From: Bacteroidales bacterium
GTDB taxonomy: Bacteria; Bacteroidota; Bacteroidia; Bacteroidales; UBA7960
Length of the DNA stretch: 64,000 nucleotides
Assembly: GCA_007129255.1 (NCBI GenBank)
Contig: SKVW01000053.1
Location: forward strand, 306-64,305
Reading direction: 5' to 3'
The notes beneath the pieces were generated by a model. The model searched no databases. It was not told the DNA's origin and was given only the letters and a program-made list of their open reading frames with translations. The position numbers were made by a program, and so were the translations under genes. Shown piece by piece: positions 35,257 through 64,000 of this stretch; within the stretch, counting starts at the first letter, position 1, and each line of letters opens with the position of its first letter.

Positions 35257-35319
35257 TCCGGGGCAATTGGTTCCGGTTTGCCAAAAGGTTTTACAATACT
35301 TTTAACTTAGTTTTCAGGA

Positions 35320-37205: not shown

Positions 37206-37237
37206 TTTGATGCCTCAAAGTATTGTTGCTATTTTTG
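37206..37237 (+). promoter_or_regulatory. Bacteroidota-type promoter (TTTG-N20-TAttTTTG) for uvrB
   Basis: TTTG at 37206-37209, a 20-nt spacer, and TATTTTTG at 37230-37237. It sits 16 nt before the ATG at 37253, which supports that start. Confidence 0.6.
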
Positions 37238-37252
37238 CACAAAACAATTTCC

Positions 37253-41409: not shown

Positions 41410-41797
41410 ATATCAGCCCGTCCAGATCTTTTTCAAGATCCCTTATACAACTGTTTATTAAGGGCAAGCCTTTGGAAGCATCGGAAAGGTCGTTATTTCT
41501 GGCCTGAATATAAAGATAATTGGAAAGTTCATGCAGGCGGGAAGCACCAATGGTGCCGGCAAGGCCCTTAAGGGTATGCAAAAACTCGGTGTATGATTTT
41601 TCATCCTGATTAGCAACAGCAGCCTCCATGTTTTCGGTAAGTTCGCGGGCATCTTCAAAAAATGAAGCAAAAATCTCCTGCAAAACTGCGGGCTGGCTTT
41701 GGGTTTGCTTTTGAAGAGTGGTAAGGGTATCTCTGTTAATAACCGGTAATTGCCTTAAATCGTCCAGAAAAATATCGAAAGGTTCATTTTTCGTCAT
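41408..41797 (-). CDS. Stand-alone Hpt (histidine phosphotransfer) domain protein
   Basis: 129 aa with the Hpt signature FLHTLKGLAGTIGASRL and the phosphorylatable His intact. Confidence 0.8.
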   Translation of the reverse strand: MTKNEPFDIFLDDLRQLPVINRDTLTTLQKQTQSQPAVLQEIFASFFEDARELTENMEAAVANQDEKSYTEFLHTLKGLAGTIGASRLHELSNYLYIQARNNDLSDASKGLPLINSCIRDLEKDLDGLI

Positions 41798-42842
41798 ATT
41801 GCTTTTGTTTTTTGTACACTTCTTCTAATTTTTTTCCGGCTTCTTCAAGGGCTTTTTCCATTATTTTTACTTCAATGACCTGCCCGAGTTTCTCAGCGAT
41901 ATTTTTGATAAGGATCTTTTCATTAATGTGAAACGGGTCCTTTTTTATAATTGGTTTTTCTTCCAGGTAGCCCACGCGTATGTATCCAAGTTTTTGTTTT
42001 TTGGCTTTTATGGGAGAGGTATAGGTCCATTTGGTTTCCCGGAAATTTTTCGTGGCATACCGCTTTTTCTGATACACTATTTCCACCCAGGTATCATGCG
42101 AGTATTTAAGGCCGTAAGGAATGATATCCAGGGTGCGTTTCAATATCCCTTCAAAAGTAATACCCGGCACTCCGGTAATATCAGAAATATCAAAAAGGCA
42201 ATTTAGCTGTTTGATTTTCTGGTTCAGGGAAGAGGTGAGTTTATAAAGTTTTTCTTCTGCGTTTTTTTTATCCGTAATATCCGATAGTACCATAATGGCC
42301 CCGGACGTTTCTTCCTTATTTTTCCTGGGATAGCTTATGCTCAGGCTGGCCCAGATGGTTTCACCATCTCCCCTGCCAAGCTGAACTTCTTCTTTATGGG
42401 GCAACCCGCCTGGGTTTTGCCGGTCAAACCCCAGGTTTTGTCGGTCTTCGGCAGCCAAAACAAAATCCAAAAATGATTTTCCGTAAATATTTTCCCTGTG
42501 ATGACCTAAAATATTACAGGCGGTGGTATTGGCAAAAACGATTTGATTGTTTTCGTTGGTGAGTATCAGCCCTTCATTCATATTGGCAATCAACTTATGA
42601 TACCTTTCCTCGCTATGCTTCAGGGCATCATGGGTTTGATCTTTCTCACGTAAAAAGCGCTCAAGGATCTTGAGGTATTTCTTTTTTTCCTGGTTGCGCT
42701 GGTAAATGATCAGCAAAATGGTGCCAAACCATAAAAGCAGGATGCCGAATATGATCAGCAGGAAATTACTGGCAGAAATAGCTATCTGGGAAATAATACC
42801 TGTTATCATAATAGGCAGGATAAGGAAAAAAACAAGCACCAA
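41784..42842 (-). CDS. Membrane-anchored PAS plus GAF-like sensor protein lacking any transmitter domain
   Basis: Two N-terminal TM helices and a PAS S-box (ERYHKLIANMNEGLILT...VLSDITDKK). The C-terminal ~130 aa are GAF-like (LFDISDIT...GYIRVGYLEE...INEKILIKNIAEKL). I found no H-box or ATPase motifs. Confidence 0.75.
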   Translation of the reverse strand: MVLVFFLILPIMITGIISQIAISASNFLLIIFGILLLWFGTILLIIYQRNQEKKKYLKILERFLREKDQTHDALKHSEERYHKLIANMNEGLILTNENNQIVFANTTACNILGHHRENIYGKSFLDFVLAAEDRQNLGFDRQNPGGLPHKEEVQLGRGDGETIWASLSISYPRKNKEETSGAIMVLSDITDKKNAEEKLYKLTSSLNQKIKQLNCLFDISDITGVPGITFEGILKRTLDIIPYGLKYSHDTWVEIVYQKKRYATKNFRETKWTYTSPIKAKKQKLGYIRVGYLEEKPIIKKDPFHINEKILIKNIAEKLGQVIEVKIMEKALEEAGKKLEEVYKKQKQYDEK

Positions 42843-42932: not shown

Positions 42933-43907
42933 TTAGAATAATTTGGACCTTTTAATCAAAAAAGACAGCAGTACCTGCTCATAGCCCTGATTGATATCTG
43001 CAGGCACAAAATCAATGTGGTATTGCATGCATTTAAGTTTTATTTGTTTAAAGTAATCATTCATATCTTTAATGTATTTATCCTTAACATCCTGGGGGTT
43101 TAGTTTTACTTCCTTCCCGGTTTCCAAATCAACAAACTTCAGGGGTCTGTTTTGATAGGAAAAGTCCAGTTCCCTTGTTTTTTCATAAACATGAAAAAGG
43201 ATCACTTCATGTTTGTTGTGCTTCAGATGCTGCAGGGCTGAGAATAATTCGTCCGGGCTGGCATTGTTTTCCAGCATATCGGAAAAGATAATCACCAGGG
43301 AGCGTTTATGAATATTTTCTGCTAGCAGGTGCAGCAGTTCTGCTGTATTGGAAGTTTTGTTAAGGCTTTGGTTTTGTTTATGATGCAATCTTTCCAGGTG
43401 TGAAAACAGCATGCGCTGGTGCACGGAACTGGATTTTGCGGGGGTATGCAATTCGGTATCTTCGGCAATGATGCTCAGGCCAACTGCATCTCTTTGCCTG
43501 TGCAATAAATAAGAGAGGGCTGCTGCACATTCCACGGCGAAAGAAATTTTGGAAGGTTGATCTCCGCTTTGCCCGAATGCGGGGAAATACATTGAAGAAG
43601 AGTTGTCGATAACTAACTGACATCTCAGGTTGGTTTCTTCTTCAAAACGTTTTACAAAAAGTTTTTCTGTGCGGGCATATAGTTTCCAGTCAATGTGACG
43701 GGTACTTTCGCCGGGATTGTAAATGCGGTGTTCTGCGAATTCAACTGAAAACCCGTGAAAAGGGCTTTTGTGAAGCCCGGTAATAAAGCCCTCTACAACT
43801 TGACGCGCAAGCAGCTCAAGGTTTCCAAAACGTCTGGGTACTTCAGGGTCAATTTTTTTTATCACTATACGGATATTTAAAAGGGGTGTCTGTTTGCATC
43901 CGGACAC
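42933..43907 (-). CDS. DUF58 domain protein (second, orphan copy)
   Basis: Contains FAEHRIYNPGESTRHIDWKLYART and the MIDAS-like VIDNSSSM. No adjacent MoxR gene. Confidence 0.85.
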   Translation of the reverse strand: MSGCKQTPLLNIRIVIKKIDPEVPRRFGNLELLARQVVEGFITGLHKSPFHGFSVEFAEHRIYNPGESTRHIDWKLYARTEKLFVKRFEEETNLRCQLVIDNSSSMYFPAFGQSGDQPSKISFAVECAAALSYLLHRQRDAVGLSIIAEDTELHTPAKSSSVHQRMLFSHLERLHHKQNQSLNKTSNTAELLHLLAENIHKRSLVIIFSDMLENNASPDELFSALQHLKHNKHEVILFHVYEKTRELDFSYQNRPLKFVDLETGKEVKLNPQDVKDKYIKDMNDYFKQIKLKCMQYHIDFVPADINQGYEQVLLSFLIKRSKLF

Positions 43908-44335: not shown

Positions 44336-47300
44336 TTAGTTTAAACGGTAACTGAACTGATATTGTTTAAGCATGTCGTTGAGAAAGCCAATAGGCTCAA
44401 CTTTAATTTTTCGTGAAAGCATGTCAACCGAAAGATTTTCCACGGGGTCTACAATGGAAACCTTTAAGCGGGATTTTCCTTTGTGCTTTTTGGCATATTC
44501 CAGCATTTTTTCGGTAAGGTCATCGCTTACATCGCTAACGGGTAAAAACAACACCAGTTCTTTAAGTTCTTTTTCTGCCAGGTCGTTGAGCAGGCTGATG
44601 CTTTTTAGTCTGACCTCAATCTGGTTGGGGTTGTATTTGTTTGTGGTCACCTTTGCTTTAACGTAAATGAAATTTTGCTCCACCAAAAAATGTTTCATTT
44701 TCAGGTATTCCTCAGAGAAAAGGAAAAGCTGATGGGATTCGGTATAGTCTTCTATAACAAAAGTTCCATAGGGCTTACCGGTTTTGGTGTATTTATGTGC
44801 CGCAGAAGTGATGATGCCGGCGAAGGAAATTTCCCTGTTTTTCAAAGCCTGCAGGTTCTTAAGGTCTCCAATGCCAACATTGCAAAAGTTCTGGATCTGG
44901 ATTTTAAAATCATCCAGGGGATGGCCGGAAATATACATCCCTGTGACTTCTTTTTCCTGCCTGAGGGTTTCCAGCTTATCCCAATGAGGGCAATCCGGAA
45001 GATCGGGATCCGGCAGGGTTACTTCCGAACTGTCGTCAAAAAGATTCATCTGGGAGGTATTCTCACGCATGATGATTTGCTGGGTATGCCGTATAATTCG
45101 ATCGATGAAGCTGGTGGTGCCGTTATCATCCGAATAGAAAAACTGTGCCCTGTGGCAGCCTTCGAAGCAGTCGAAGGCACCGGCCCTGGCAAGTGACTCA
45201 AAAACCCTTTTGTTAACCGCCCGCAGGTTGACCCTTTTGGTGAAGTCAAAAATATTTTTGAAAGGTCCGTTGGTTTCCACTTCGGTAACAATGTTTTCCA
45301 CAGCTCCCTCCCCTACTCCTTTTATAGCACCAAGCCCAAAACGGATCTCACCCTTGTCGTTTACCACAAAATTGAATTTACTTTCATTGACATTCGGCCC
45401 CAGGACAGGGATCTGCTGGCGCTGGCATTCCTCCATCATGAAGGTGATCTTTTTAATGTCACTGAAGTTGTGGGTGAGCACAGCCGCCATGTATTCAGCG
45501 GTGTAATTGGCTTTAAGGTATGCGGTGCGGTAAGCAACGACCGAATAAGCGGCCGAATGTGAACGGTTAAACCCGTATTCGGCAAACCGAGCCATCACGT
45601 CAAATATTTTTTCGGCATTTTCCTGATTAACTCCTTTCTTATGGGCTCCTTCCACAAAAAAAACCTTTTGGCGCTCCATCTCCTCCATTTTCTTCTTACC
45701 CATAGCCCTTCTCAGGATATCCGCGCTGGCCAGCGAAAAGCCTGCCATGATCTGGGCAGCCTGCATGATCTGCTCCTGGTAAACCATAATTCCGAAGGTG
45801 GGTTTCAGGATGTCTTCCAGCCAGGGATGGGGGTATTCAGTTTTCTGTCGTCCGTGCTTGCGGTTGATGAACAAGGGTATAAACTCCATGGGCCCGGGGC
45901 GGTAAAGGGCGTTCATGGCAATCAGGTCCTCAATGTTGTTGGGCTTTAGCTCTTTAAGGTACTCCCGCATACCCTGGGACTCAAACTGGAAAGTGCCGAT
46001 TGTTTCACCGCGCTGGTATAGTGCATAGGTATTTTCATCATCCAAGGGAACGTTTTCAATATCAATTTTGCTGCCATAACGGCGTTCAATGTTTTTCAGG
46101 GCCTCTTTGATAATGGAAAGGGTTTTTAATCCCAGGAAGTCCATTTTGAGCATGCCCACCGATTCCACATATTTCCCGTCATATTGGGTTACGGGGAGGT
46201 CGGTATCTTTCTGGGTACTCAAAGGAAGGCATTCCTCAAGGTCTTTGGGGCCGATGATCACTCCGCAGGCATGCACCCCGGTTTGCCGGTTGGAGCCTTC
46301 AAGTATTTTGGCAAACTTAAGGGTCTGGCTTATCAGTGGGTTGGGGTCGTTCAGTGCTTTGGCCAGATCGGGTATTTCTTTGTAAGCTTTTTCCAGGGTG
46401 GTGCCGGGCCTTTCGGGCACCAGTTTGGCCAGGCGGTCGGCTTCGGGCAAAGGGAGCTTAAGCACCCTTGCCACATCGCGTATGGATGATTTGGCAGCCA
46501 TGGTTCCAAAAGTCACAATCTGGGCCACTTTTTCCCGCCCGTATTTTTGGATCACGTATTCCATGACTTTTTCCCGTCCGTCGTCGTCAAAATCAATATC
46601 GATATCGGGCATGGACACCCTTTCCGGGTTGAGGAAACGCTCAAAAAGCAGGTTGTATTTAATGGGGTCGATGGCGGTGATTCCCGTACAATAAGCCACG
46701 GCAGAGCCGGCCGCACTGCCCCTTCCGGGTCCAACGGCCACATCCATTTCCCTGGCTTTGTAGATAAAGTCTTGCACAATAAGGAAGTAACCTGCAAAAC
46801 CCATCTCCCTGATTACCTTCAATTCAAAATCCAGCCGTTCACAAATAGGTTTGGTAATCTCGGGATATAATTTTTTGGCACCTTCATAGGTGAGGTGACG
46901 CAAATAATCATCTTCGGTTTCAAAACCTTCCTCAAGCGGAAAAACCGGCAGAAGTACCTTGTTGGTGGTAATTTCAAAGTCTTCAATTTTACCGGCTATT
47001 TCATTGGTGTTTTCAATGGCTTCGGGCACATCATGAAAAAGCTCGGCCATTTCCTGCCGGGTTTTGAAATACTCCTGTCCGGTGTATTTCATACGGGTTT
47101 CATCGTCCAGGTCTTTCCCCGTTTGAAGACAGATCAGGATTTCGTGGGCTTTGGCATCTTCGGCATTGATATAATGACAGTCGTTGGTGGCGATGATTTT
47201 TACATTGTGTTTGCGGGCCATCTCAATCAACACCTGGTTTACGGGTTCTTGTTCTTCAAGCCCGTGGCGCTGAAGCTCCAGGTAAAAGTCCTCTCCAAAA

Positions 47301-47800
47301 ATTTCCAGGTATCCCAAAAGGATACTTTCGGCTTTTTCAACGCCTTTTTCCATGATTGCCTGCGGTATTTCACCTCCCAGGCAAGCCGAAGAAGCAATAA
47401 GCCCTTGATGGTAAGTCTTTAAAAGCTCCTTATCAATTCTTGGGGTATAGTAAAAACCTTCGAGATAGCCTTTGGATACCAGGCGGGAAAGATTTTTATA
47501 TCCGTTAAGGTTTTTGGCAAGCAGTATCATATGAAAACCGCTTCGGTCCTCCCTCCCCTTTTTTTCAGTGCGACTGCCTTCCGCAACATAAACTTCACAG
47601 CCAATAATGGGTTTAATTCCTAATCGGCAGGCGGTTTGTGTAAACTCAAGCACTCCATACATATTGCCATGGTCGGTAATGGCAACTGCTTTCATGCCGT
47701 CATCGGCTGCTTTTTGCAAAAGTGGGGTGATGGATGAAGCTCCATCCAAAATAGAAAACTGCGTATGTAAGTGTAAATGAGTAAACTGTGGTACGGCCAT
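44336..47800 (-). CDS. dnaE: DNA polymerase III subunit alpha
   Basis: PHP domain FTHLHLHTQFSILDGA. Conserved blocks across the full length read as the polymerase core and an OB-fold region. I chose the start at 47800 (MAVPQF...) over the 15-codon extension. Confidence 0.95.
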   Translation of the reverse strand: MAVPQFTHLHLHTQFSILDGASSITPLLQKAADDGMKAVAITDHGNMYGVLEFTQTACRLGIKPIIGCEVYVAEGSRTEKKGREDRSGFHMILLAKNLNGYKNLSRLVSKGYLEGFYYTPRIDKELLKTYHQGLIASSACLGGEIPQAIMEKGVEKAESILLGYLEIFGEDFYLELQRHGLEEQEPVNQVLIEMARKHNVKIIATNDCHYINAEDAKAHEILICLQTGKDLDDETRMKYTGQEYFKTRQEMAELFHDVPEAIENTNEIAGKIEDFEITTNKVLLPVFPLEEGFETEDDYLRHLTYEGAKKLYPEITKPICERLDFELKVIREMGFAGYFLIVQDFIYKAREMDVAVGPGRGSAAGSAVAYCTGITAIDPIKYNLLFERFLNPERVSMPDIDIDFDDDGREKVMEYVIQKYGREKVAQIVTFGTMAAKSSIRDVARVLKLPLPEADRLAKLVPERPGTTLEKAYKEIPDLAKALNDPNPLISQTLKFAKILEGSNRQTGVHACGVIIGPKDLEECLPLSTQKDTDLPVTQYDGKYVESVGMLKMDFLGLKTLSIIKEALKNIERRYGSKIDIENVPLDDENTYALYQRGETIGTFQFESQGMREYLKELKPNNIEDLIAMNALYRPGPMEFIPLFINRKHGRQKTEYPHPWLEDILKPTFGIMVYQEQIMQAAQIMAGFSLASADILRRAMGKKKMEEMERQKVFFVEGAHKKGVNQENAEKIFDVMARFAEYGFNRSHSAAYSVVAYRTAYLKANYTAEYMAAVLTHNFSDIKKITFMMEECQRQQIPVLGPNVNESKFNFVVNDKGEIRFGLGAIKGVGEGAVENIVTEVETNGPFKNIFDFTKRVNLRAVNKRVFESLARAGAFDCFEGCHRAQFFYSDDNGTTSFIDRIIRHTQQIIMRENTSQMNLFDDSSEVTLPDPDLPDCPHWDKLETLRQEKEVTGMYISGHPLDDFKIQIQNFCNVGIGDLKNLQALKNREISFAGIITSAAHKYTKTGKPYGTFVIEDYTESHQLFLFSEEYLKMKHFLVEQNFIYVKAKVTTNKYNPNQIEVRLKSISLLNDLAEKELKELVLFLPVSDVSDDLTEKMLEYAKKHKGKSRLKVSIVDPVENLSVDMLSRKIKVEPIGFLNDMLKQYQFSYRLN

Positions 47801-48159
47801 TCTGATTTTTTTTGGGCAATAAAAATATACAAAAATTCCCGGCAATCAGATAGAAATTTTTTCACAATCTGTGGTATTTATCAACCTTTATTCCGGTTCA
47901 GTTTACAGTCAGAGATTTGGATTTTTAGCTTTCCCGAATTCAGCTTAAATTATACCCATCCCCTGTTTTGTTAAAATTTGTCAGCCGTGCATTGTTGCAT
48001 GAAATAAGATGAACATCCGGATGTGTTGTCAAATTGTTCAGTACCATCTTTTCAAAACCAATTGAAAAAGGAAAAAAATGCACCCGGTTTTCCAAAACCT
48101 TTTTTCATTCAAACAAAGTGGCTTCCCAAAAGTTGGTACCTCTGGGTAATATGAAAGAA

Positions 48160-49113: not shown

Positions 49114-50022
49114 ATGCCAACAAAAATCAGACTACAGCGGAAAGGTAAAAAAGGACAACCTTTTTACCAACTGGTAGTTGCGGATGGTCGTGCACCCCGA
49201 GATGGAAAGTTTATTGAGAGACTTGGCACATACAACCCCATGACCCACCCGACAACTATAGAGATCGACTTTGATCGTTCCCTTTACTGGGTGCAGGTTG
49301 GGGCCCAACCCACAGATACTGCCCGCAGTATTTTATCACACAAAGGGGTGCTTTTGAAGCACCATTTACTTAAAGGAGTTAAAAAAGGCGCCCTTACAGA
49401 AGATCAGGTAGAGGAAAGATTTCAGGCCTGGCTGAAGGAAAAGCAGGAAAAAATTGAACAAGCTTCCAAAGATTCCGATCTTTCGGAAAAAGAACTTATC
49501 AAGAAGAGACTTGAAGAAGAGAAAAAGGTAAGCGAAGCCCGTGCAGAGGAACTTGCCAAAAAACGCGCTAAGGAAAATCTGAAAGCCGAAGAAGCCAAAG
49601 CTGAAAAAGCTGCCGAAACCGCCCAACCCGAAAAGGCCCCTGCTGAGGAAGCAAAAGGCGAAGAAGCTGCTGCTGAAAAGCCTGCTGCTGAAGAATTAAA
49701 GGTTGAAGATAAGCCCGAAGCCAAAAAAGAAGAGAAAACGGAGGAGAAAGCAGAAGTAAAGCCTGAGGAAAAGCCCGAAGAGAAAAAGGAAGAGAAAGCT
49801 GAAGTAAAGGCTGAAGAAAAACCGGAATCCAAAAAAGAAGAGAAAGCCGAAGTAAAGGCTGAGGAAAAGCCGGAAGAGAAAAAGGAAGAAAAGGCAGAAG
49901 AAAAAGCTGAAGCCAAAGCCAAAGCCGAAAAGAAAGAGGAAGTAAAAGCCGAAGACAAAGAAGAAAAGAAGTCTGAAAAAGACAAAGAAGAAAAGGAAGA
50001 CAAAGAGAAGAAGGCAGAATAA
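49114..50022 (+). CDS. rpsP: 30S ribosomal protein S16 with a ~210-aa Lys/Glu/Ala-rich C-terminal extension
   Basis: The N-terminal ~85 aa are canonical S16 ([37 protein letters not shown]). The rest is low-complexity KEA-rich sequence. Confidence 0.9.
49741..49884 (+). repeat. Three tandem 48-nt (16-codon) units inside the S16 tail
   Basis: Units at 49741-49788, 49789-49836 and 49837-49884 each encode EEKAEVK(A/P)EEKPE(E/S)KK. They are in frame and near-identical at nucleotide level. Confidence 0.8.
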
Positions 50023-50049: not shown

Positions 50050-50583
50050 ATGGATATTAAAGATTGCTATTATCTGGGTTTTATTTCAAAAACTTTTGGG
50101 TATAAAGGTGAGGTGGTTTGCTACCTCGATGTTGACGACCCGGAATATTACGAAAAACTGGAATCGGTTTTCATTCATCTGGAAGGGAAACTGGTTCCTT
50201 TTTTTATTGAAAAGATCACCTTTCGTCCAAGTGGGAATGAGGCAGTGATTGCCTTCGAACATGTGGATACTGAAGAAAAAGCCCTTCATTTATGTGGCAA
50301 TGAGATGTACCTTCCCCTGGAAATGCTGCCACCTTTATCGGGAAAACAGTTTTATTTTCATGAGATTACCGGTTTTGAAGTAATTGATGCTGAAAAGGGG
50401 GTGGTAGGTATCGTGGAAAAAGTGTTGGAATTACCCGGAAACCCGGTAATGCAGTTGAAAAAAGGCAATAAAGAGGTACTGGTTCCTGCCAGTGACGCGA
50501 TCATCGAGAAAGTCGACCGAAAAAAAAAGGAGATCTATATTCAAGCACCAGAGGGTCTTATTGATCTTTACCTGGAAGAATAA
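50050..50583 (+). CDS. rimM: 16S rRNA processing protein RimM
   Basis: 177 aa in the conserved position after rpsP, with an N-terminal RimM barrel and a C-terminal PRC-barrel-like pattern. Confidence 0.85.
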   Translation: MDIKDCYYLGFISKTFGYKGEVVCYLDVDDPEYYEKLESVFIHLEGKLVPFFIEKITFRPSGNEAVIAFEHVDTEEKALHLCGNEMYLPLEMLPPLSGKQFYFHEITGFEVIDAEKGVVGIVEKVLELPGNPVMQLKKGNKEVLVPASDAIIEKVDRKKKEIYIQAPEGLIDLYLEE

Positions 50584-51318: not shown

Positions 51319-52173
51319 TCAGGCAACAAATATTTTTTTATCAAAGGGTATCTGGCTGACGAAGTCTTTCATAACCAGGTGTTTTTCGATCAGGAAAGGA
51401 AGAAGTTCGCCAACTTCCCTGAATTGCATGCTTTTCAATTTGATATCCACCTGGTTTGCTATCAGGTAAAGTTGGGATGCTCCCATGCTTCCTGACATTC
51501 CCCTGATGGTGGTAATTAATTTTTCGCAGGTGATCGCATCACTCTTTTCGTAAGACCAGATAAAAGAAGCAATATAATTTTCCATTTCTTCAACAAAAGT
51601 GTTGTATAGTTTTGCCAGGGAGAACCTATTTTTTGCTGCTTGCTCTGAAAAATTGGTATAGGTTTGGAGGCTGATAACCGGGGCTTTATCAATGGAGCTC
51701 AGACAAAATACCTGCCGTTGGTGTTTTTGCATCAACATTTCTTTGTTATTTTTCCATTGCTGAAAAACCGATCTTATATGGGTTTCATCATTTGGAAAAA
51801 CAATGGCATCGTCGAACCCTTTTTTTAGCAATCGGCGTACAAATCTGTTGGTGTTTCCGTTGAGTCCGGGTTCCAGGAGGGCAAAAACAGGAGGAAGAGA
51901 ATAAAAGGTTTTCCTTAAGCCGGTTATGGTGGAGATACCGTTTTCCAGGTGGGGAAAAATGCTCATTACAATGAAATCATATTTAACCGTTCCGAAAAGA
52001 TTAAAAGGGTTAACCTGTGTTTCATTATAAAACTTCATTGCTTCTTTAAAGTTGCTGGCGATAGTGATTTCACAACCCATCTGCCGGAGCCGTTCAGAAA
52101 AGTTTCTTTTTGAAGGCACCACACATTGGAGCAAAAGCACAGCCAGCGAACTTTGCTGTAAAGTTTCATCCAT
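51319..52173 (-). CDS. Degenerate receiver-like plus His-less Hpt-like protein
   Basis: The N-terminal ~130 aa follow the REC pattern, but the acidic pocket and phospho-Asp are replaced (LLLQCV..., YDFIVMSIFPH, AIVFP). The C-terminal TTIRGMSGSMGASQL aligns with the Hpt motif HxLKGxxGxxGA, with Thr in place of His. Confidence 0.55.
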   Translation of the reverse strand: MDETLQQSSLAVLLLQCVVPSKRNFSERLRQMGCEITIASNFKEAMKFYNETQVNPFNLFGTVKYDFIVMSIFPHLENGISTITGLRKTFYSLPPVFALLEPGLNGNTNRFVRRLLKKGFDDAIVFPNDETHIRSVFQQWKNNKEMLMQKHQRQVFCLSSIDKAPVISLQTYTNFSEQAAKNRFSLAKLYNTFVEEMENYIASFIWSYEKSDAITCEKLITTIRGMSGSMGASQLYLIANQVDIKLKSMQFREVGELLPFLIEKHLVMKDFVSQIPFDKKIFVA

Positions 52174-52201
52174 ATTGGGGAGGTTTAAATATGGTAACTT
52201 T

Positions 52202-52251
52202 TAAGCTGCGTTGCTAAAAAATTCTCTAAGCTGCGTTGCTAAAAAATTTCG
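52202..52251. repeat. 25-bp tandem duplication spanning the stop codon of the Hpt gene
   Basis: TAAGCTGCGTTGCTAAAAAATT occurs at 52202-52223 and again at 52227-52248, with 22 of 22 bases identical. Confidence 0.85.
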
Positions 52252-52622
52252 TTAAGTTTATTTTTAAATTCTAAAAAAACACTTTTTATATGAGCTGAAG
52301 CTGCTTTGGCTTCGGCGTAATTTTGTTTTTTAACTGCATTTTCAATAATACGGGAAAGCTCTTTTAGCCTTTGCGCTCCAACAGAACCGCTTGTTCCGGA
52401 GAGACTGTGAGCCGTTTTGCGAAGCGTTTCATAGTCCCCGGTTTGGGAGGCATTCATAATTTCTTCGCACATTAAATCCGCATCTTCAAAAAAAGAATCA
52501 AAAAGATTCTTCAGAATGGCATTATCCCCCTGGGTATGGGTTTTCAGCATTTGGATGGTTTCCTCTTCAATAACTTCTGCTTTGCTTATTTTCTCGAGGT
52601 AAGGTGTTTTCCCATCTTCCAT
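52239..52622 (-). CDS. Stand-alone Hpt domain protein
   Basis: 127 aa with the Hpt signature AHSLSGTSGSVGAQRL. It is a paralog of the 41408-41797 product; both share FxSFFEDA. Confidence 0.8.
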   Translation of the reverse strand: MEDGKTPYLEKISKAEVIEEETIQMLKTHTQGDNAILKNLFDSFFEDADLMCEEIMNASQTGDYETLRKTAHSLSGTSGSVGAQRLKELSRIIENAVKKQNYAEAKAASAHIKSVFLEFKNKLNEIF

Positions 52623-55676: not shown

Positions 55677-58271
55677 ATGAATTTAAATAATTTCACAATA
55701 AAATCACAGGAGGCCATACAAAAGGCCCAGGAAATAGCCAATGGTTACCAACACCAGGCCATAGAAAACGGCCATTTGCTGAAAGGAATCCTTGCGGTGG
55801 ATGAAAATGTGGCACCTTACCTGCTAAAAAAAAACAATGTCAATGTGCAAGTGATTCAGCAAGCCCTTGATAAGATCATTGAAGGATATCCGAAAGTTGC
55901 CGGTGGCGAGGTATATTTATCTTCTTCATGCAATCAAACCCTTCAAAAGGCCATGGGTATGCTAAAGGAGTTCAATGATGAATTTATTTCCATTGAACAC
56001 CTGCTGCTTGCCCTTGTCGCCGGAACCGGGAACATTGCACAGCTGCTAAAGGATGCCGGATTAACAGTTGATAACCTCAAAGAGGCCATCAGAGACCTCA
56101 GACAGGGCTCCGGCGTTAAAAGCCAGACCGCCGAAGATACTTACAATGCTTTAAATAAATACGCCAACAACCTTAACGATCTGGCTTTATCCGGCAAGCT
56201 TGATCCGGTAATCGGGCGTGATGAGGAGATCCGCAGGATCCTGCAGATACTTTCCAGGCGTACCAAAAACAATCCCATTCTTATCGGAGAGCCCGGTGTG
56301 GGAAAAACAGCCATTGCCGAAGGGCTTGCCCACCGGATTGTAAACGGTGATGTGCCGGAAAACCTGAAATCCAAAAAGATCTTTGCCCTGGATATGGGAG
56401 CGTTGATCGCCGGAGCCAAATATAAAGGCGAGTTTGAAGAACGCGTCAAAGCGGTTGTAAAAGAGGTTGTGGGCTCTGACGGGGAGTATGTGCTTTTCAT
56501 TGATGAGATCCATACCCTGGTGGGTGCCGGAGCAAGCGGCGAAGGGGCCATGGATGCGGCCAATATTCTGAAACCGGCACTTGCCCGGGGAGAACTCAGG
56601 GCGGTGGGCGCAACAACACTAAAAGAATATCAAAGATATTTCGAAAAGGACAAAGCCCTGGAAAGAAGGTTCCAGACTGTTATTGTGGATGAGCCGTCCC
56701 GCCTGGATGCCATCAGTATTTTAAGAGGGCTTAAAGAACGTTACGAAACCCATCACCAGGTGCGGATCAGGGATGAAGCCATTATTGCTTCTGTGGACCT
56801 TTCGCAGCGGTATATTTCCGACCGTTTTCTTCCAGATAAGGCAATTGACCTTATTGACGAAGCGGCTTCCAAGCTTAGGCTGGAAATGAACTCTGTGCCG
56901 GAGGAACTCGATGAAGCCGAACGGCGCATCCGGCAGCTGGAAATTGAAAAGGCTGCCATCAAGCGTGAAAAAGATGAACCCAAACTTAAAATGCTTAACC
57001 AGGAGCTGGCCAATCTGCAGGAAGAACGAAACAAACTGAAGGCCAAATGGCAAAGCGAGAAAAACATTGTTGAAGAGATCCAGAAGCAGAAAACGGATAT
57101 CGAACGTTTTCGCTTTGAGGCCGATCAGGCTGAACGCAATGGTGATTTTGGCAAGGTTGCAGAATTGCGTTATGGCAAAATCAAGGAAGCGGAGCAAAAG
57201 CAACAGGAACTGCATGCAAAACTCCGGCAAATGCAGGCAGATGCTGCACTGATCAAAGAAGAAGTAAGTGCGGAGGATATTGCAGATGTTGTTTCCCGCT
57301 GGACAGGGATTCCCATAAGCCGCATGCTGCAAAGCGAGCGGGAAAAATTACTGTATCTTGAAGATGAGTTACACAAGCGGGTAATTGGTCAGGATGAGGC
57401 CATTGAAGCGGTGTCTGATGCCATTCGTCGCAGCCGTGCCGGACTTCAGGACTACAAACGCCCGGTTGGTTCATTTATCTTTTTAGGTACTACAGGAGTG
57501 GGAAAAACCGAGTTGGCGAGGGCTTTGGCAGAATTTCTTTTCAATGATGAGAATGCCATGGTGCGCATTGATATGTCAGAATACCAGGAACGCCATACCG
57601 TAAGCCGGCTGGTGGGTGCCCCTCCGGGATACGTGGGGTATGAAGAAAGCGGCCAATTGACTGAATCTGTCAGAAGAAAGCCTTATTCTGTTATTTTGCT
57701 GGATGAGATTGAAAAAGCCCACCCTGATGTGTTCAATATCCTGTTGCAGGTGCTGGAGGATGGCCGCCTGACAGACAACAAAGGCCGCCTGGCGGATTTT
57801 AAAAATACCATCATCATCATGACCTCAAATATCGGTTCAGGCCTGATCCAGGAAAAAATGGAACAGCTTACCGATGAGAACCGGGAAAAGGTAATTGAAA
57901 GCACGCGCGATGAGGTATTTACTGTGTTAAAAAAAACCATTCGTCCCGAGTTTATTAATCGTGTGGACGAAATCATCATGTTTAAGCCCCTGACAAGGGA
58001 AGAAATAAAGGATATCGTTTCCCTGCAGATGGAAAGGGTAAAAGAAATGCTGAGCGATAACCATATCAGTATTGAACTGACCCCTGCCGCCATCAGCTGG
58101 GTGGCAAAAGCAGGGTTTGATCCACAGTTTGGGGCAAGACCCCTAAAGCGGGTTATTCAGCGAAGTATCCTCAACAGGTTGTCCAAAGAGATCCTTTCGG
58201 GAAAAATACAGCAGAACGCAAAAGTGCTGGTGGATGAAAAAGATGGAGAGTTGGTTTTTAAGACCGAATAG
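55677..58271 (+). CDS. clpB: ATP-dependent chaperone/disaggregase ClpB
   Basis: 864 aa with two AAA+ modules ([18 protein letters not shown]), a long coiled-coil middle domain, and a Clp N-domain. Confidence 0.95.
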
Positions 58272-58314
58272 ATTTATCCGGTCGTTTCTAATATTATTCA
58301 GATCATTTTATCAA

Positions 58315-58360
58315 TTGCAAAGCCCGCTATCATTACGATTAGCGAGCTTTGCAATTTTTA
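58315..58360 (+). terminator. Rho-independent terminator after clpB
   Basis: 15-bp stem TTGCAAAGCCCGCTA / TAGCGAGCTTTGCAA with one mismatch, followed by a T5 run. Confidence 0.75.
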
Positions 58361-58395: not shown

Positions 58396-59460
58396 TTAAT
58401 ATCTAAGGATTGCCGCTATTTTTTCATGCTCTTTCAAAGAGCCGTTTTCTACAAAAAGAACCCTTCCCCCTTTGTTGATGGCCAGCTCTGCGACCTCGTC
58501 CACTGCATCATCCATGGTACCGTTGCCCTGCGGCTTATGCAGAAAAGTAAGTGTATTTTGGTTTTCCAGTTTTGCGGGCTGGTGGTAATCTTCCTCAATA
58601 AGCAGCAAACCGGTGCGCCCCTGTGAGGTAAAATTCCATACTTGCGACAATCCGGAGGCATATTTCCCATTACTTACAGCTTTATTCAGATCTTCAAGTG
58701 CCTCGTTGCGGACTTCCTGCATTTTTTCCTTAACCTTTGGCCAGGCTTTTTTACCAAGGTCATGGACAGAGGCATTGTCAAAGTTTCCGCTTAGCTGTGT
58801 TAAAATTATGTCCTTATTGTCTGCAACTTCCCGATATAGCGAAAGATTTTTTTCAACACCTGCCAGTACCAGCTTTTCAGGATCTTTTTTAATGATCTCT
58901 AAAACTCTTTTGTCTACATTGTTATAGAACTCTTTTAGTTTTTTCTTTTTTTCTCTTGATAGATCGGACAGATTGAACTGTGCAAATTCCATATCATTTT
59001 CCACAGGAAAGCCATCGGAAATTTCCACGGCATCGTCTCTGAAACAACTCATCAGGCGGGCCTTTTGAGCCGTAATTGCCAGTAAATAATACCGTGTGCC
59101 CCGGTTGACGCTTTTTATGATGTCCCGCGTAGCAAAGGTTTTGTCAATAATCACCCTTTCCCTCACCCTGAATGGGAGGTCAACTTTTTCAGCAAAATCT
59201 TTACTGATAAACAAGCCCAGACCATCTAAAGTCCTGCTAATATCAATATTATTGGCCAATGCTTGCATTTTTCCGATCAAGGGGGTTATATCCCTTTTAG
59301 GGAATTCGCCAAGCAGCCTTTCCTCTGCTTCCCGAACCAGATTCCTGATCCGGATAGCGTTTTTTTGATTATCCGGGGCTGTCCGATAGGTGGGCAGCAA
59401 AATGGAAACACAGGGATAATCATTTACTTCCATTAACTTTTTCAATACAATTTGATTCAT
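58396..59460 (-). CDS. eRF1/Pelota-like (bacterial aeRF1-superfamily) protein
   Basis: 354 aa. The ordered landmarks YPCVSILLPTYR, RYYLLAITAQKARL, KLVLAGVEKNLSLY, GLLLIEEDY and the C-terminal EKIAAILRY parallel the eRF1/Pelota central and C-terminal domains. No GGQ motif. Confidence 0.55.
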   Translation of the reverse strand: MNQIVLKKLMEVNDYPCVSILLPTYRTAPDNQKNAIRIRNLVREAEERLLGEFPKRDITPLIGKMQALANNIDISRTLDGLGLFISKDFAEKVDLPFRVRERVIIDKTFATRDIIKSVNRGTRYYLLAITAQKARLMSCFRDDAVEISDGFPVENDMEFAQFNLSDLSREKKKKLKEFYNNVDKRVLEIIKKDPEKLVLAGVEKNLSLYREVADNKDIILTQLSGNFDNASVHDLGKKAWPKVKEKMQEVRNEALEDLNKAVSNGKYASGLSQVWNFTSQGRTGLLLIEEDYHQPAKLENQNTLTFLHKPQGNGTMDDAVDEVAELAINKGGRVLFVENGSLKEHEKIAAILRY

Positions 59461-59643
59461 AACACGCAGATTTATTAATCGTTAAACATAACGGCTTTAT
59501 ACCCAAAATATACGCATAATTGGTATTATAAACAATTATTTTTTTGCTCCGGTCAAAATATTTCTTAAAAGCGAAAAACCTTGCGCGCACTTCTCCCGGA
59601 GAAGTTTTAAAGTTGATATACGAAATAAGGTTGTCCGGGAAAA

Positions 59644-60894
59644 ATGATAATTTTGCAAAAAAAAACCGAACCTTTGAATACTCCATTATTTATTGCCAGG
59701 AGATTGAATAAAAGCCGTGAAGGAAATAGCTTTACCGGGTTAATAAAAAAAATATCCATGCTGAGCATTGCACTTGGCCTGGCGGTGATGATCATTTCTG
59801 TGGCGGTAGTAACTGGTTTTCAGAACGAGATCAGGGAAAAGGTAATCGGATTTGGTTCCCATATTCAAATCACCAATTACGATTTTAATATTTCTTACGA
59901 AGCCCGGCCCATTGTTAAAGACCAGGATTTTGCCCGGGAGATAAAGCAAATTGAAGAAGTACGGCATGTGCAGGAATTTGCCACCAAAGCCGGGATCATA
60001 AAAACCGATGAGGACATCCATGGAATCATTCTTAAAGGGGTGGGCCCTGATTTTGACTGGACATTTTTCAGGGAGCGATTGGTTGAAGGTTCGGTGTTAA
60101 ATTTGACGGATACGGACAGGTCTGATGAGGTGATCATTTCAGGTTTTATGTCCAGGCGACTGAATATCGGTACCGGGGATGACATTTTTGTGTATTTTAT
60201 CCAGGAACCACCCCGAATCAGGCGCCTGACCATTGCCGGTGTTTATGAAACAGGCCTTGAAGAACTTGATGAGCTTTTTGTCCTTGGGGATATCCGGCAT
60301 ATTCAACGCCTTAATAATTGGAGTGAAGATCAGATTGGTGGATACGAAATCCTGGTATACGATTACCGGGACATTGCCCAAACTACCGAAGCCGTTTTCG
60401 ATATTATCCCTTATCATCTGGATGCAAGGAGTATCCGGGAGTTGTATCCCCAGATATTTGACTGGCTGGCGTTACTGGACATGAATGTTTATGTTATCCT
60501 TTTCCTGATGGTGTTGGTGGCGGGTATCAATATGATCACCACCCTGCTTATAGGGGTGCTTGAAAAAACCAACCTGATCGGTATTTTAAAAGCTGTTGGG
60601 GGCAACAATGATTTTGTCAGAAGGGTTTTTCTTTATAATGCAGCTTTTTTGATCGCTAAGGGGCTTTTATGGGGCAACCTGGTTGGCCTGACCTTTGGAT
60701 GGGTGCAAAACCATTATGGCCTGATAAAACTTGATCAGGAGTCTTATTATGTGTCAGAAGTGCCTATTAATATTGAATGGTTCCACGTAATTCTGCTAAA
60801 TGGGGGTACTTTTGCCATTTGTATGATCATGCTGCTGGTCCCATCTTACATTGTAACCCGTATTTCACCGGTAAAAGCCATTATTTTCCGCTAA
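59644..60894 (+). CDS. FtsX/LolC/LolE-family ABC transporter permease
   Basis: 416 aa with an N-terminal TM helix, a large periplasmic loop, and three C-terminal TM helices of an FtsX-type domain. Confidence 0.85.
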   Translation: MIILQKKTEPLNTPLFIARRLNKSREGNSFTGLIKKISMLSIALGLAVMIISVAVVTGFQNEIREKVIGFGSHIQITNYDFNISYEARPIVKDQDFAREIKQIEEVRHVQEFATKAGIIKTDEDIHGIILKGVGPDFDWTFFRERLVEGSVLNLTDTDRSDEVIISGFMSRRLNIGTGDDIFVYFIQEPPRIRRLTIAGVYETGLEELDELFVLGDIRHIQRLNNWSEDQIGGYEILVYDYRDIAQTTEAVFDIIPYHLDARSIRELYPQIFDWLALLDMNVYVILFLMVLVAGINMITTLLIGVLEKTNLIGILKAVGGNNDFVRRVFLYNAAFLIAKGLLWGNLVGLTFGWVQNHYGLIKLDQESYYVSEVPINIEWFHVILLNGGTFAICMIMLLVPSYIVTRISPVKAIIFR

Positions 60895-61667: not shown

Positions 61668-64000
61668 TTATTCAGAGTTTCGCAAGATTTTAAGCTTTTC
61701 GTCCAGTATGGCAATTTCCTGGCGGGCCTTTTCTATTTTTTCCTCAAACTCCGCCTTTAATACATCTGCTTTTTTAGATGAGGCAAAAAAGCCGATGTTG
61801 TTTTCCCAAAGATTGATATCATTCTGTAAGGCGTTGATCTTATTGCTTATAAAGTTGCGCTCCTTGTAAATGATATTATCTGCCTGTGGCGAATTCTTGA
61901 TGTTTTCTATTTTGGTTCGGAAAGAAAGGGTGCTTTTAGCCTTCTTACTGATTTTGAGAATTTCAAATTGATCATCAATGGCTTTTCGGAATTCATTCTG
62001 GATTTTATCTTTTTGTTTGATAGGCACATGTCCGATGTCCATCCACTCACGCTGAAACTCCTTAAGCGTTTTAAGGTTTTCATTGTTGTCGTCAGCATAT
62101 TGATGGGTTTTTATCTTTTCAATGAGTGCTTTTTTCTTTTCCAGATTTTCTTCCTGTTTCTCCCCAATACTGGAGAAATGTTCGCTTTTTCTGTTGAAAA
62201 AATCATCGCAGGCTGCCCGGAAACGTTTCCATATCTTATCGGAAAACTTAGCCGGAACGGGGCCGATTTTTTTCCATTGCTTCTGCAGATCAATCAGTTC
62301 TTCGGTGGTTCGCCTCCAGTCTTCGCTGTCTTTGAGGGCTTCGGCCTGCATGCAAAGGTTTAGCTTTTGATTGTAGTTCTCTGTTTGTACTTCCTTAAAT
62401 TTCCTGAAAAACTCCTTTTTATTTTTAAAAAAGCTATCCAGGGCTGTCCGGAAACGATTCCAAATTTCATTGTTAACCTTTTTTGGGGCAAAACCAATGG
62501 ATTTCCAAACCTTGAAAAGTTCATTGATCTCATCGGTGCTTTTTTGCCATTGCCGGGGTGAATCGGGTTGACGGGAAGCAACCTCTTCTGCTTTTTCGCA
62601 AAGCAATATTTTGGCTGCATAATTCTTGTTCTGCTCTTCACGGAGGTTATCGTAATGTTCCTGCCGGCGGCTATTGAGCTTATCGGTGGCTGCTTTGAAC
62701 CGGTCCCAAAGTTCATCTTTTTTGTCTTTGGGTACCGGGCCTGTTTCTTTCCAGGCTTCATGAAGTTTTTGTAATCGCTGAAAAGATTTGGTAATAGAGG
62801 GTTCCAACAGCAGCTCTTCGGCTTTTTCGCAAAGTTCGGTTTTGGTTTCCAGGTTCTTTTTCAGGTCAAGATCCTTGAGTTCCTTGTTAATTTTTACCTT
62901 GTCAAAAAACTTTTCTACCAGGAAATGGTAGTTATTCCAAAGTGTGCCTTTGGAGCCCTGCGGTATTGGCCCCACCTGCCTCCATCTTTCCTGAAGGTCG
63001 TTAAAAAGATCATAGGTCTTTTTCAACTCCTCTTCGGAGTCGATCAGGTTGCGCAGCTCTTCAAGGATGTTTTCCTTGATTTTCAGGTTTTCCTGTTTGC
63101 GTTGTTCCAGCTCCTGGTCGTAAATGGACTTTTTTTCTTTGTAAATGGCAAAAGCGGCATCAAATCTTTCGGTCAAAGGGTCTGCAGGCTTTTCCGGGGT
63201 TTCTTCCTGGGGGTTGTCCTTATCCAGGGATTTTTCAAAATCATCCAGGGATGCTTCCTTTACCAATTTGCGGAAAGAAGCCTTAATGAATCCAATGTGT
63301 TTCCTGATGGTATTAACATCTTCCTCTTTTACAAGGTTTTCCAGGGCTTCTACCAGTTCCTCCTGCTTCATTTGGTTGTAGCGTTCGCTTAGGTCCTCGG
63401 TATCGTCTTTTTCCTCTTTATCCTCAAAGGATTTTTCAGGACCTTTGGTTTTTTCAGGTTTCCCGGTTTCTTCATCGGCGGCTTCCGCAGCAGGTTTTTC
63501 CTCTTCGGGCGATGAAACAGGAGATGAATCCGCGGTCTGCGCCGGATCAGCTACTTCCGGTCCGGGGGAAGCTGCCTGCTCTGATGTGGATTCTTTTTTA
63601 TTTACGGGGGACTTTTCTTCCTTTGCTTCGGAATTTGCTGCAGATGTTCCGGAAACGGGCTTGTTTGCATTCTCCGCTTGGGTTTCCGGTGATTTTTCTT
63701 TTTCTGCACTGGCACCATCCCGGGTTTCCTCATCCAAAGGTTTTTCAACCTGGTTTTTTTCTTCAGCGTTTTTCACCTGGTTGTCGGGGACAACAGGTTT
63801 TTCTTCTGAGGAAGCTTCTTCTGAAGACTTTTCTTTTTCTGCGGTATCAGATTCCTGAGCAGGCAGTGAAGCAATCGTCTCCTCCGTTTCCTCTTTTTTT
63901 AGCCCGGAAGTTTTTTCTCCTTTTTCAGGAGCTGGAGATGAATCAACAGTTTTTTGGTCCCCATCAGTCTTTTCGGGTGATTGTTCCTGATCTTTGGGGC
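61668..64000 (-). CDS. DUF349 repeat protein (5-prime partial; reading frame open to the window edge)
   Basis: At least five repeats of the pattern W(K/R)xxGP(V/I)P...W(N/D/K)RF+ (for example QWKKIGPVPAKFSDKIWKRFRAACDDFF). The tracked start at 63776 is a GTG. The same frame stays stop-free through 64000, encoding an acidic Ser/Glu/Pro-rich N-terminal region. Confidence 0.8.
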   Translation of the reverse strand, partial: PKDQEQSPEKTDGDQKTVDSSPAPEKGEKTSGLKKEETEETIASLPAQESDTAEKEKSSEEASSEEKPVVPDNQVKNAEEKNQVEKPLDEETRDGASAEKEKSPETQAENANKPVSGTSAANSEAKEEKSPVNKKESTSEQAASPGPEVADPAQTADSSPVSSPEEEKPAAEAADEETGKPEKTKGPEKSFEDKEEKDDTEDLSERYNQMKQEELVEALENLVKEEDVNTIRKHIGFIKASFRKLVKEASLDDFEKSLDKDNPQEETPEKPADPLTERFDAAFAIYKEKKSIYDQELEQRKQENLKIKENILEELRNLIDSEEELKKTYDLFNDLQERWRQVGPIPQGSKGTLWNNYHFLVEKFFDKVKINKELKDLDLKKNLETKTELCEKAEELLLEPSITKSFQRLQKLHEAWKETGPVPKDKKDELWDRFKAATDKLNSRRQEHYDNLREEQNKNYAAKILLCEKAEEVASRQPDSPRQWQKSTDEINELFKVWKSIGFAPKKVNNEIWNRFRTALDSFFKNKKEFFRKFKEVQTENYNQKLNLCMQAEALKDSEDWRRTTEELIDLQKQWKKIGPVPAKFSDKIWKRFRAACDDFFNRKSEHFSSIGEKQEENLEKKKALIEKIKTHQYADDNNENLKTLKEFQREWMDIGHVPIKQKDKIQNEFRKAIDDQFEILKISKKAKSTLSFRTKIENIKNSPQADNIIYKERNFISNKINALQNDINLWENNIGFFASSKKADVLKAEFEEKIEKARQEIAILDEKLKILRNSE

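Follow-up and report, generated by a model that had tools for sequence, protein, structure and literature searches.

The complete reading frame at positions 58396..59460 (minus strand) of the window, i.e. the 64-kb stretch of Bacteroidales DNA analysed here, very probably encodes a Balon-type ribosome hibernation factor. Its 354-aa product is an unremarkable Balon-family protein (AOC03_06830, baeRF_family3); Balon derives from the archaeo-eukaryotic release factor aeRF1 and is a bacterial descendant without catalytic activity. Membership by sequence and fold, the missing catalytic and stop-codon motifs, the retention of family loops and purifying selection all support this assignment. The prototype, AOC03_06830 or Balon of Psychrobacter urativorans (PDB 8RD8/8RDV/8RDW; Helena-Bueno et al., Nature 2024, PMC10901736), has been resolved on ribosomes by cryo-EM, has knockouts with a phenotype and inhibits translation in vitro. 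An earlier note on this DNA had held that bacterial aeRF1-like proteins were known from comparative genomics only and had no assigned function; this no longer applies, as a 2024 study described the family together with its fold, the way it binds ribosomes and its role in cell physiology (PMC10901736). With structure and function of Balon published, the gene is therefore not an uncharacterised oddity.

A constrained gene of the Balon family

The reading frame starts with ATG, ends in a stop codon and carries all four motifs described in the earlier note, namely TRYYLLAITAQKARLM at residue 122, KLVLAGVEKNLSLYRE at residue 196, TGLLLIEEDY at residue 283 and GGRVLFVENGSLKEHEKIAAILRY at residue 331, the last running straight into the stop. 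A motif search over the full length of the protein retrieved no GGQ, NIKS or NIKL, in agreement with the absence of GGQ noted before. Since the product aligns end to end with dozens of homologs (351-377 aa) and the gene shows a dN/dS of ~0.05 relative to an 85%-identical ortholog (L001), it is a real gene under purifying selection. An identical protein (P0001) is present, without a name, in the public protein collection searched, and most relatives listed with a source go under the label “hypothetical protein”. Scans of the 64-kb window for tRNAs and Rfam families returned no matches.

The NCBIfam equivalog model NF052287 (“AOC03_06830 family ribosome hibernation factor”) matched residues 6-354 over the entire profile (positions 1-361 of 361), with a score of 374.8 bits, above the cutoff of 330 (E = 5.6e-112). 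An hmmscan against the Pfam baeRF models, one of the checks proposed in the earlier note, returned PF18845 (baeRF_family3; E = 4.7e-39, 134.9 bits versus a gathering threshold of 31.5, profile positions 1-168 of 168), and Balon itself matches the same model with 105.6 bits. The protein is hence a family 3 member within the baeRF-1 clade of the aeRF-1 superfamily (PMC6514570; Pfam baeRF_family1-12), with which it shares the two-strand insert in the Pelota-type domain and the loss of the catalytic Gln. Using phmmer, residues 5-354 aligned to the Balon chain 8rd8_B (E = 2.5e-42), and a profile built from relatives of the protein retrieved Balon (3.4e-93) as well as the mycobacterial homologs Msmeg1130 (6.7e-14) and Rv2629 (9.8e-6). 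On the mycobacterial model NF052288, the protein scored 40 bits against a cutoff of 480. Cyanobacterial members are closer to it than Psychrobacter Balon is (38-39% identity over 99% of the protein), and P0060 and P0066 among them already bear the name “AOC03_06830 family ribosome hibernation factor”. The Balon family as a whole comprises >3,000 representative clusters at E ≤ 1e-10.

An AF2 model (pLDDT 85.9, pTM 0.69) predicts the three-domain fold of aeRF1/Pelota-type proteins. When this model was searched with Foldseek, as the earlier note had likewise suggested, the top matches were the ribosome-bound Balon chains 8rd8_B, 8rdw_B and 8rdv_B (E ~1e-31 to 5e-32, TM 0.70-0.72; for 8rd8_B, E = 4.9e-32 and TM 0.71), followed by Msmeg1130 (TM 0.72) and then by aRF1/eRF1 and Pelota. 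Rv2629 was matched with a TM of 0.62. Msmeg1130 and Rv2629 (PDB 8V9J/8V9L/8V9K; NF052288) thus share the fold, along with the lack of NIKS and GGQ and the presence of a C-domain insertion, but are only 13-19% identical to the 354-aa protein and have larger C-domain insertions. Classical aeRF1/eRF1 and Pelota/Dom34 have the same three-domain architecture and fold (E from 4e-18 to 1e-7), at 12-16% identity and a global TM of 0.25-0.48. The likeness to aeRF1, with E = 4.7e-39 for baeRF_family3 and E = 4e-18 for aRF1 (4af1), is far beyond chance, and the placement in the eRF1/Pelota superfamily proposed earlier is borne out. The molecule label of PDB 8rd8_B, methyl-accepting chemotaxis protein, is an inherited misannotation; we rejected this identity for the 354-aa protein, as Pfam and NCBIfam searches gave no MCP signalling, HAMP or transmembrane sensor match.

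Homology to aRF1/eRF1 over three domains could be taken to indicate an active archaeal-type class-I release factor, or peptidyl-tRNA hydrolase, operating in a bacterium. The chance of this is close to nil, and the missing catalytic motif effectively refutes it. The protein has neither the catalytic GGQ nor the stop-codon NIKS of classical aeRF1/eRF1, the loop that takes the place of GGQ varies across the family (see also PMC6514570), and Balon leaves the peptidyl-transferase centre inert (PMC10901736). Among the Pfam eRF1 domain models none scored above threshold, eRF1_3 alone giving a match below it (E = 0.03, 15.3 bits versus 25.8, residues 252-354). As GGQ is absent, the protein should not hydrolyse peptidyl-tRNA, just as the earlier note had anticipated; unlike classical aeRF1/eRF1, it is moreover bacterial and not the main termination factor of its organism.

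Domains and loops compared with Balon

The 354-aa protein and the 369-aa Balon align collinearly over their full length, and NIKS and GGQ are missing in both. They differ in overall sequence (~30% identity) and in their hosts, a Bacteroidales MAG versus a γ-proteobacterium. The N-terminal domain (residues ~1-120; 59101..59460, minus strand), delimited by the secondary structure of the model and a gap-free alignment to Balon residues 4-120, is the predicted counterpart of the decoding-centre-binding domain of Balon, without NIKS. It includes the loop P23-T-Y-R-T-A-P-D-N31 (59368..59394, minus strand), which aligns to K-T-H-R-E-H-P-A-N of Balon, is conserved in position and length and retains the T-x-R-x-x-P-x-N pattern. 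Since KTHREHPAN contains the sole “HP” dipeptide of Balon, and the text of the papers gives no residue numbers for the motif, we infer PTYRTAPDN to be the equivalent of the published HP motif. In the 354-aa protein, the proline of this dipeptide is kept and the histidine replaced by alanine (AP instead of HP), while H24 is replaced by tyrosine. Across 225 family sequences, T24 is conserved in 192, R26 in 181 and P29 in 199. The histidine of HP is not family-wide, as the column of Balon H27 is occupied mostly by A (76), S (32) or F (28), and by H in 22 of the 225 sequences.

The middle region (residues 123-282; 58615..59094, minus strand), as delimited by the PF18845 match, is RNase-H-like and homologous to the aeRF1 catalytic domain. 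Where aeRF1 has its GGQ loop, motif search and model place a loop devoid of GGQ (residues 147-168, ISDGFPVENDMEFAQFNLSDLS; 58957..59022, minus strand), which the model predicts with the lowest confidence (pLDDT <50 at residues 160-163). F151 and P152 in this loop, i.e. the F-P element shared with Balon, are at least 80% conserved family-wide; the loop otherwise varies in length and sequence across the family. From L136 to K176, the loop measures 39 residues in the 354-aa protein versus 53 in Balon (family median 42), a difference of 14 residues that stems from a lineage-specific insertion of ~10 residues before the F-P element in Psychrobacter. Given the shorter loop, the 354-aa protein may lack the lasso around A2602 or the bL27 trap, or have them in another form, and given that the extra residues of Psychrobacter are lineage-specific, one of these two features may not be general. 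GGQ strings do occur in 17 other family members, mostly at a C-terminal KGG-x-V motif and hence outside the catalytic loop; in P0106 and P0116, a GGQ lies near residue 167.

The C-terminal domain (residues ~265-354; 58399..58668, minus strand) resembles eRF1 domain 3 and the corresponding Pelota-type domain, as judged from the sub-threshold eRF1_3 match and from Foldseek (25-27% identity to the aRF1 C-domain, 3ir9), and would correspond to the domain of Balon that faces EF-Tu and the stalk. The protein ends in R353 and Y354, which immediately precede the stop codon, are nearly invariant in the family and are also found in Balon; the terminal ILRY resembles the end of eRF1 domain 3. Residues 296-306 (AKLENQNTLTF; 58543..58575, minus strand) form a predicted β-hairpin, with model strands at 296-299 and 303-306, and align without gaps to AKVDEDAQTLTM of Balon. 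The segment from E290 to D318 is of the same length in both proteins (27 residues; family median 28). This hairpin is a candidate equivalent of the “β-loop” insertion of Balon.

The clpB neighbourhood

The convergent neighbor of the Balon gene, considered here as context only, is clpB (55677..58271, plus strand), encoding an 864-aa protein with two AAA modules (Pfam Clp_N, AAA, AAA_lid_9, AAA_2, ClpB_D2-small). Within the 124-bp spacer, a hairpin with 17-bp arms (58313..58356) lies between the two stop codons, followed on the plus strand by a T run (58355-58359); the T-rich tail on the minus strand is weaker. RNA folding of the 124-nt spacer yielded -32.0 kcal/mol for the plus and -41.5 kcal/mol for the minus strand. 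The hairpin was found by direct folding, as a consensus terminator scan missed it owing to its loop and stem limits and gave two in-gene chance sites only. It probably acts as a bidirectional intrinsic terminator, and similar GC-rich hairpins are found at the same place in four further loci (L001, L002, L003 and L010). The convergent arrangement with clpB across a strong terminator, as described in the earlier note, is thereby recovered.

Upstream, the Balon gene shares an intergenic region (59461..59643, minus strand with respect to the gene) with a divergent FtsX/MacB-type permease gene. From the gene layout, this region presumably holds the Balon promoter, and the gene would therefore be monocistronic. 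At -52, TATATTTT comes close to the Bacteroidetes -7 element; an exact TAnnTTTG was found nowhere upstream of the gene, and the best that a σ70 promoter scan produced were weak matches (9/12), most of them within the ORF. The clpB and FtsX-type neighbors contrast with the raiA gene and stress operons reported for Balon genes, which most often adjoin raiA and often lie near genes for chaperones such as Hsp20 and DnaK/J (PMC10901736). A scan of the genes from 25 to 64 kb of the window turned up no HPF/RaiA gene.

The order Balon-clpB-SDF, present in the window, recurs at L001 (85% identity), L002 (54%), L003/L004 (54%), L010 (50%) and L011 (51%), and is kept at loci with another gene upstream of Balon. 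This recurrence, together with the published proximity of Balon genes to chaperone genes (PMC10901736), might point to a functional stress module in which hibernation and disaggregation are coupled in this Bacteroidales clade, for example via shared heat-shock control or interference between convergent transcripts. We consider such a module unlikely. At each locus with the pair, the two genes converge on a strong hairpin terminator and hence are not co-transcribed; the arrangement is embedded in a wider block (DUF349-OMP-FtsX-Balon-clpB-SDF) that is syntenic in related Bacteroidales MAGs, which suggests plain lineage synteny; and the literature searched contained no link between Balon and ClpB. 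The pairing is also confined to a Bacteroidales subclade and absent in more distant homologs: clpB is not a neighbor at L005-L009, the gene for P0018 (55% identity) adjoins an RND efflux pump, that for P0047 has LepA and a SpoU methylase as neighbors, and that for P0054 likewise has no clpB partner. The comparison of ortholog neighborhoods proposed in the earlier note hence revealed conservation of clpB within the subclade and not at these other loci, and the note's caution that the pairing may be coincidental was apt.

Proposed role at the ribosome

A link between the baeRF-1 clade and translational shutdown was predicted in 2019 (PMC6514570) and later confirmed by experiment for Balon. The proteins of P. 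urativorans, M. smegmatis and M. tuberculosis bind the A site of 70S ribosomes, vacant or translating, under stress, and recruit EF-Tu·GDP, the mycobacterial homologs having likewise been seen on ribosomes (PMC10901736). Synechocystis Balon was found on LrtA-bound hibernating ribosomes and still binds the A site despite sharing just 30% identity and contacting rRNA through different residues; neither a contact between EF-Tu and Balon nor binding to translating ribosomes was seen there (bioRxiv 10.64898/2026.07.03.736309). Parts of the mechanism concerning EF-Tu and translating ribosomes may therefore not carry over. For the organism studied here, ribosome binding, stress dependence and an involvement of EF-Tu are proposed by analogy with these members.

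By this analogy, cells would produce or deploy the 354-aa protein during stress or stationary phase, and it would enter the 70S A site independently of mRNA. The loop PTYRTAPDN of the N-domain would touch the decoding centre (h44 A1492 / H69 A1913), the middle domain would adjoin the peptidyl-transferase centre without releasing the peptide for want of GGQ, and the C-domain, β-hairpin included, would point towards the L7/L12 stalk and perhaps EF-Tu·GDP. With its A site filled, the ribosome would be silenced and its active centres protected until growth returns. The ~30% identity to the characterised Balon, the alanine in place of the HP histidine, the tyrosine in place of H24, the shorter middle loop, the Synechocystis results on EF-Tu and translating ribosomes, and the lack of an HPF/RaiA gene among those scanned at 25-64 kb count against a Balon-type function.

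The earlier note had considered a role in stalled-ribosome or RNA quality control plausible, of which the association with ribosomes stands in outline, while the role demonstrated for the family is hibernation. A rival reading roughly along these lines would make the protein a non-catalytic rescue factor akin to Pelota/Dom34 that recognises stalled ribosomes and promotes their dissociation or quality control rather than their storage. The common fold (Foldseek E ~1e-10 to 1e-7, TM 0.23-0.45) is compatible with this; relief of stalled ribosomes by non-catalytic means is among the options considered for baeRF-1 proteins by Burroughs & Aravind (2019, PMC6514570), the authors of the Balon study leave other activities possible (PMC10901736), and a mechanistic parallel with RRF/Pelota has been raised (bioRxiv 10.64898/2026.07.03.736309). 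We nevertheless rate a rescue role as highly unlikely, since the match to Pelota is far weaker than that to Balon (TM 0.28 versus 0.71) and all four members examined experimentally were on hibernating ribosomes (PMC10901736; bioRxiv 10.64898/2026.07.03.736309). Balon lacks loop A of Pelota and stays ~10 Å away from the mRNA channel (PMC10901736), loop A is missing from the 354-aa protein as well, and none of the nearby genes encodes a splitting partner such as ABCE1. Orthology to Pelota was rejected on account of the much weaker structural match and the lack of any match to the Pelota N-domain model of Pfam.

A Balon-type hibernation factor hence remains our preferred reading. That the Bacteroidales clade works differently from the Psychrobacter prototype, through hibernation coordinated with ClpB or through binding without EF-Tu as in Synechocystis, has little probability in our estimate. 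The features behind this idea are the Ala-Pro in place of His-Pro, the shorter middle loop and the clpB-facing position, which is kept across the clade along with the shared terminator.

Ribosome hibernation in Bacteroidetes is poorly understood according to a 2025 preprint, and the literature searched contained no description of a Balon protein from Bacteroidota. As a discovery, the gene matters little, for the NCBI equivalog model would name it automatically. In practice, the analysis gives P0001 a name, Balon-family ribosome hibernation factor. Family-wide statistics mark the HP histidine and the long middle loop as lineage-specific features of the prototype, a point to bear in mind when generalising the mechanism worked out in Psychrobacter.

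Assignment to the Balon family

The minus-strand ORF at 58396..59460 encodes a 354-aa protein from an ATG start, exactly as the earlier note had read it, and the four peptide blocks likened there to eRF1/Pelota landmarks were found at residues 122, 196, 283 and 331. The protein ends in ...AAILRY-stop. Homologues of 351–377 aa align with it over its entire length, and comparison with an 85%-identical orthologue (locus L001) yielded a dN/dS of ~0.05; the gene is intact and under purifying selection.

Pfam searches returned baeRF_family3 (PF18845; E = 4.7e-39), with the entire model covered, confirming the suspected baeRF affinity, while baeRF families 7, 6, 8 and 11 matched more weakly and eRF1 domain 3 fell below threshold. 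The NCBIfam equivalog NF052287 ("AOC03_06830 family ribosome hibernation factor") scored 374.8 bits over residues 6–354, exceeding its curated cutoff of 330 bits. AOC03_06830 is a 41-kDa protein since renamed Balon, whose complexes with the ribosome of Psychrobacter urativorans were solved by cryo-EM (8RD8, 8RDV, 8RDW; PMC10901736). Indeed, phmmer against PDB sequences gave a single strong full-length match, to these very entries (8rd8_B/8rdv/8rdw; E = 2.5e-42); the label "methyl-accepting chemotaxis protein" on the PDB Balon chain is an inherited misannotation. A profile built from relatives of the window protein recovered Balon (3.4e-93) as well as its mycobacterial homologues Msmeg1130 (6.7e-14) and Rv2629 (9.8e-6). 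Since Balon, used as a Pfam query, also scores as baeRF_family3, the baeRF lead and Balon denote one family.

An AlphaFold2 model computed from an alignment of 34 sequences was confident (mean pLDDT 85.9, pTM 0.69), with pLDDT dropping below 50 solely at residues 160–163. Foldseek against the PDB ranked three Balon chains first (E = 4.9e-32 to 1.3e-31, TM ~0.71, 29–30% identity) and M. smegmatis Msmeg1130 second (E ~1e-21, TM 0.72), followed by archaeal aRF1 (4e-18) and then eukaryotic eRF1, Pelota and Dom34. The earlier note was thus right about the aeRF1-like fold; its premise that such bacterial proteins lack an assigned function is out of date, Balon having been characterised (PMC10901736). 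At the sequence level, the profile searches settle the identity of the window protein, which is very probably a ribosome hibernation factor of the Balon family from a Bacteroidales bacterium.

Family features and distribution

Balon is a three-domain aeRF1 homologue without NIKS or GGQ. Its "HP motif" loop makes contact with A1492 and A1913, its lasso loop and bL27 trap lie near the peptidyl-transferase centre, and its C-domain β-hairpin contacts EF-Tu·GDP (PMC10901736). Absence of NIKS together with an extended N-domain loop, absence of GGQ, and a C-domain insertion are common to Balon and the mycobacterial homologues (PMC10901736, Supplementary Fig. 5 legend). The window protein has likewise lost the catalytic and decoding motifs: GGQ, whose absence had been remarked on before, NIKS and NIKL are all missing. 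Its N-domain loop is conserved, reading P-T-Y-R-T-A-P-D-N against K-T-H-R-E-H-P-A-N in Balon; as the published text gives no residue numbers, we placed the HP motif by alignment, at the sole HP dipeptide of the Balon N-domain. The modelled C-domain β-hairpin (residues 296–306) aligns gap-free to AKVDEDAQTLTM of Balon.

Across an alignment of 225 family sequences, T24, R26 and P29 are near-invariant, whereas the column of Balon H27 holds mostly other residues (Ala 76, Ser 32, Phe 28; His just 22). The former-GGQ-loop segment spans 39 residues in the window protein and 53 in Psychrobacter Balon, with a family median of 42; the C-domain hairpin region measures 27 residues in both (median 28). These statistics mark the window protein as typical of the family and the prototype as carrying lineage-specific extras. 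Two family members (P0106 and P0116) have a GGQ in the middle-domain loop at about residue 167, the site of the aeRF1 catalytic motif; the tripeptide may be fortuitous there, or the motif may have been retained or regained.

When 1.84 billion representatives were searched exhaustively with phmmer, 5,722 clusters matched at E≤1e-3, of which 3,135 reached E≤1e-10 and 372 reached E≤1e-30. Balon homologues are reported from ~20% of representative bacteria in 23 phyla (PMC10901736). The baeRF-1 clade was defined in 2019 by Burroughs and Aravind, who predicted it to be catalytically inactive and connected it with HPF and the shutdown of translation (PMC6514570). A protein identical to ours is already in NCBI without a name; named relatives are mostly "hypothetical protein", and cyanobacterial members already bear the hibernation-factor name. 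Given the published Balon function and baeRF-1 description, the finding is known in kind, and its novelty is limited to clade-specific details, namely AP replacing HP, a shorter middle loop and synteny with clpB.

Genomic neighbourhood

The Balon-family gene is monocistronic. A divergent FtsX/MacB-type permease gene (59644..60894) lies on one side and, on the other, convergent clpB (55677..58271, plus strand; Clp_N, two AAA modules, AAA_lid_9, ClpB_D2-small). In line with the strong terminator noticed earlier, the 124-bp spacer contains a hairpin (58313..58356, arms of 17 nt) with a T run after it on the plus strand. The two genes cannot form one operon.

The gene order DUF349 – OMP β-barrel – FtsX – (HAD) – Balon – clpB – SDF symporter recurs as a block in related Bacteroidales (L001, 85% identity to the window protein; L002, 54%; L010, 50%; L011, 51%), and L003/L004 (54%) keep Balon-clpB-SDF with a MutS-like upstream gene; all syntenic loci have a strong hairpin between both stop codons. 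Functional coupling of the Balon-family protein with ClpB might be read from this arrangement. However, the clpB pairing is absent around three further homologues, P0018 (55%), where an RND efflux system adjoins, P0047 (46%; L005 4888..8928 and L006) and P0054 (40%), which fits neither pattern. Retention in some relatives and absence in others argue for clade-level synteny rather than a family trait; coupling is unnecessary to account for the data, none of the papers in the library searched connects Balon with ClpB, and we consider coupling improbable.

The P0047 gene itself sits between two ribosome-related genes, convergent lepA (EF4) and a divergent SpoU/MRM3-like RNA methyltransferase. In L002 (7434..7937) and L010 (4453..4956), a 167-aa HAD-family hydrolase gene, missing from the window, precedes the Balon gene by 44–63 bp in the same orientation, and the two may be co-transcribed in these relatives. 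The window's DUF349 protein (61668..63776, minus strand; 702 aa, five repeats), part of the block seen in L010 and L011, has an acidic, Ser/Pro/Glu-rich N-terminus of ~130 aa.

Elsewhere, a DUF58 protein (42933..43907, minus) adjoining a PAS-domain protein (41784..42842, minus), DnaE (44336..47845), UvrB (37223..39280), MutL (32551..34386) and two tandem rhomboid genes (34501..36213) indicate an ordinary chromosomal housekeeping region. Upstream of rimM (50050..50583), the 302-aa bS16 ORF (49114..50022, plus) confines its S16 domain to residues 9–67, the rest being a repetitive, K/E/A-rich low-complexity tail of ~200 residues. Adjacent ORFs of 284 and 127 aa (51319..52622, minus) each carry an HPt-like signature, H/G-S-x-S-G-x-x-G-A, and are candidate phosphotransfer proteins; the former had no Pfam match at E≤1e-8. 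Neither tRNA genes nor Rfam families were found in the 64-kb window.

Proposed mode of action

By analogy, the most likely mechanism of the window protein is that of Balon; ribosome binding and physiology in the Bacteroidales host we infer wholly from this parallel. Synechocystis Balon, 30% identical to the prototype, has different rRNA-contact residues and no EF-Tu contact was seen, yet it occurs on hibernating ribosomes (bioRxiv 10.64898/2026.07.03.736309), so such differences are compatible with the same basic function. Under stress or in stationary phase, the protein would occupy the ribosomal A site independently of mRNA, and EF-Tu·GDP and the L7/L12 stalk may help to stabilise it there. 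[quoted passage not shown]
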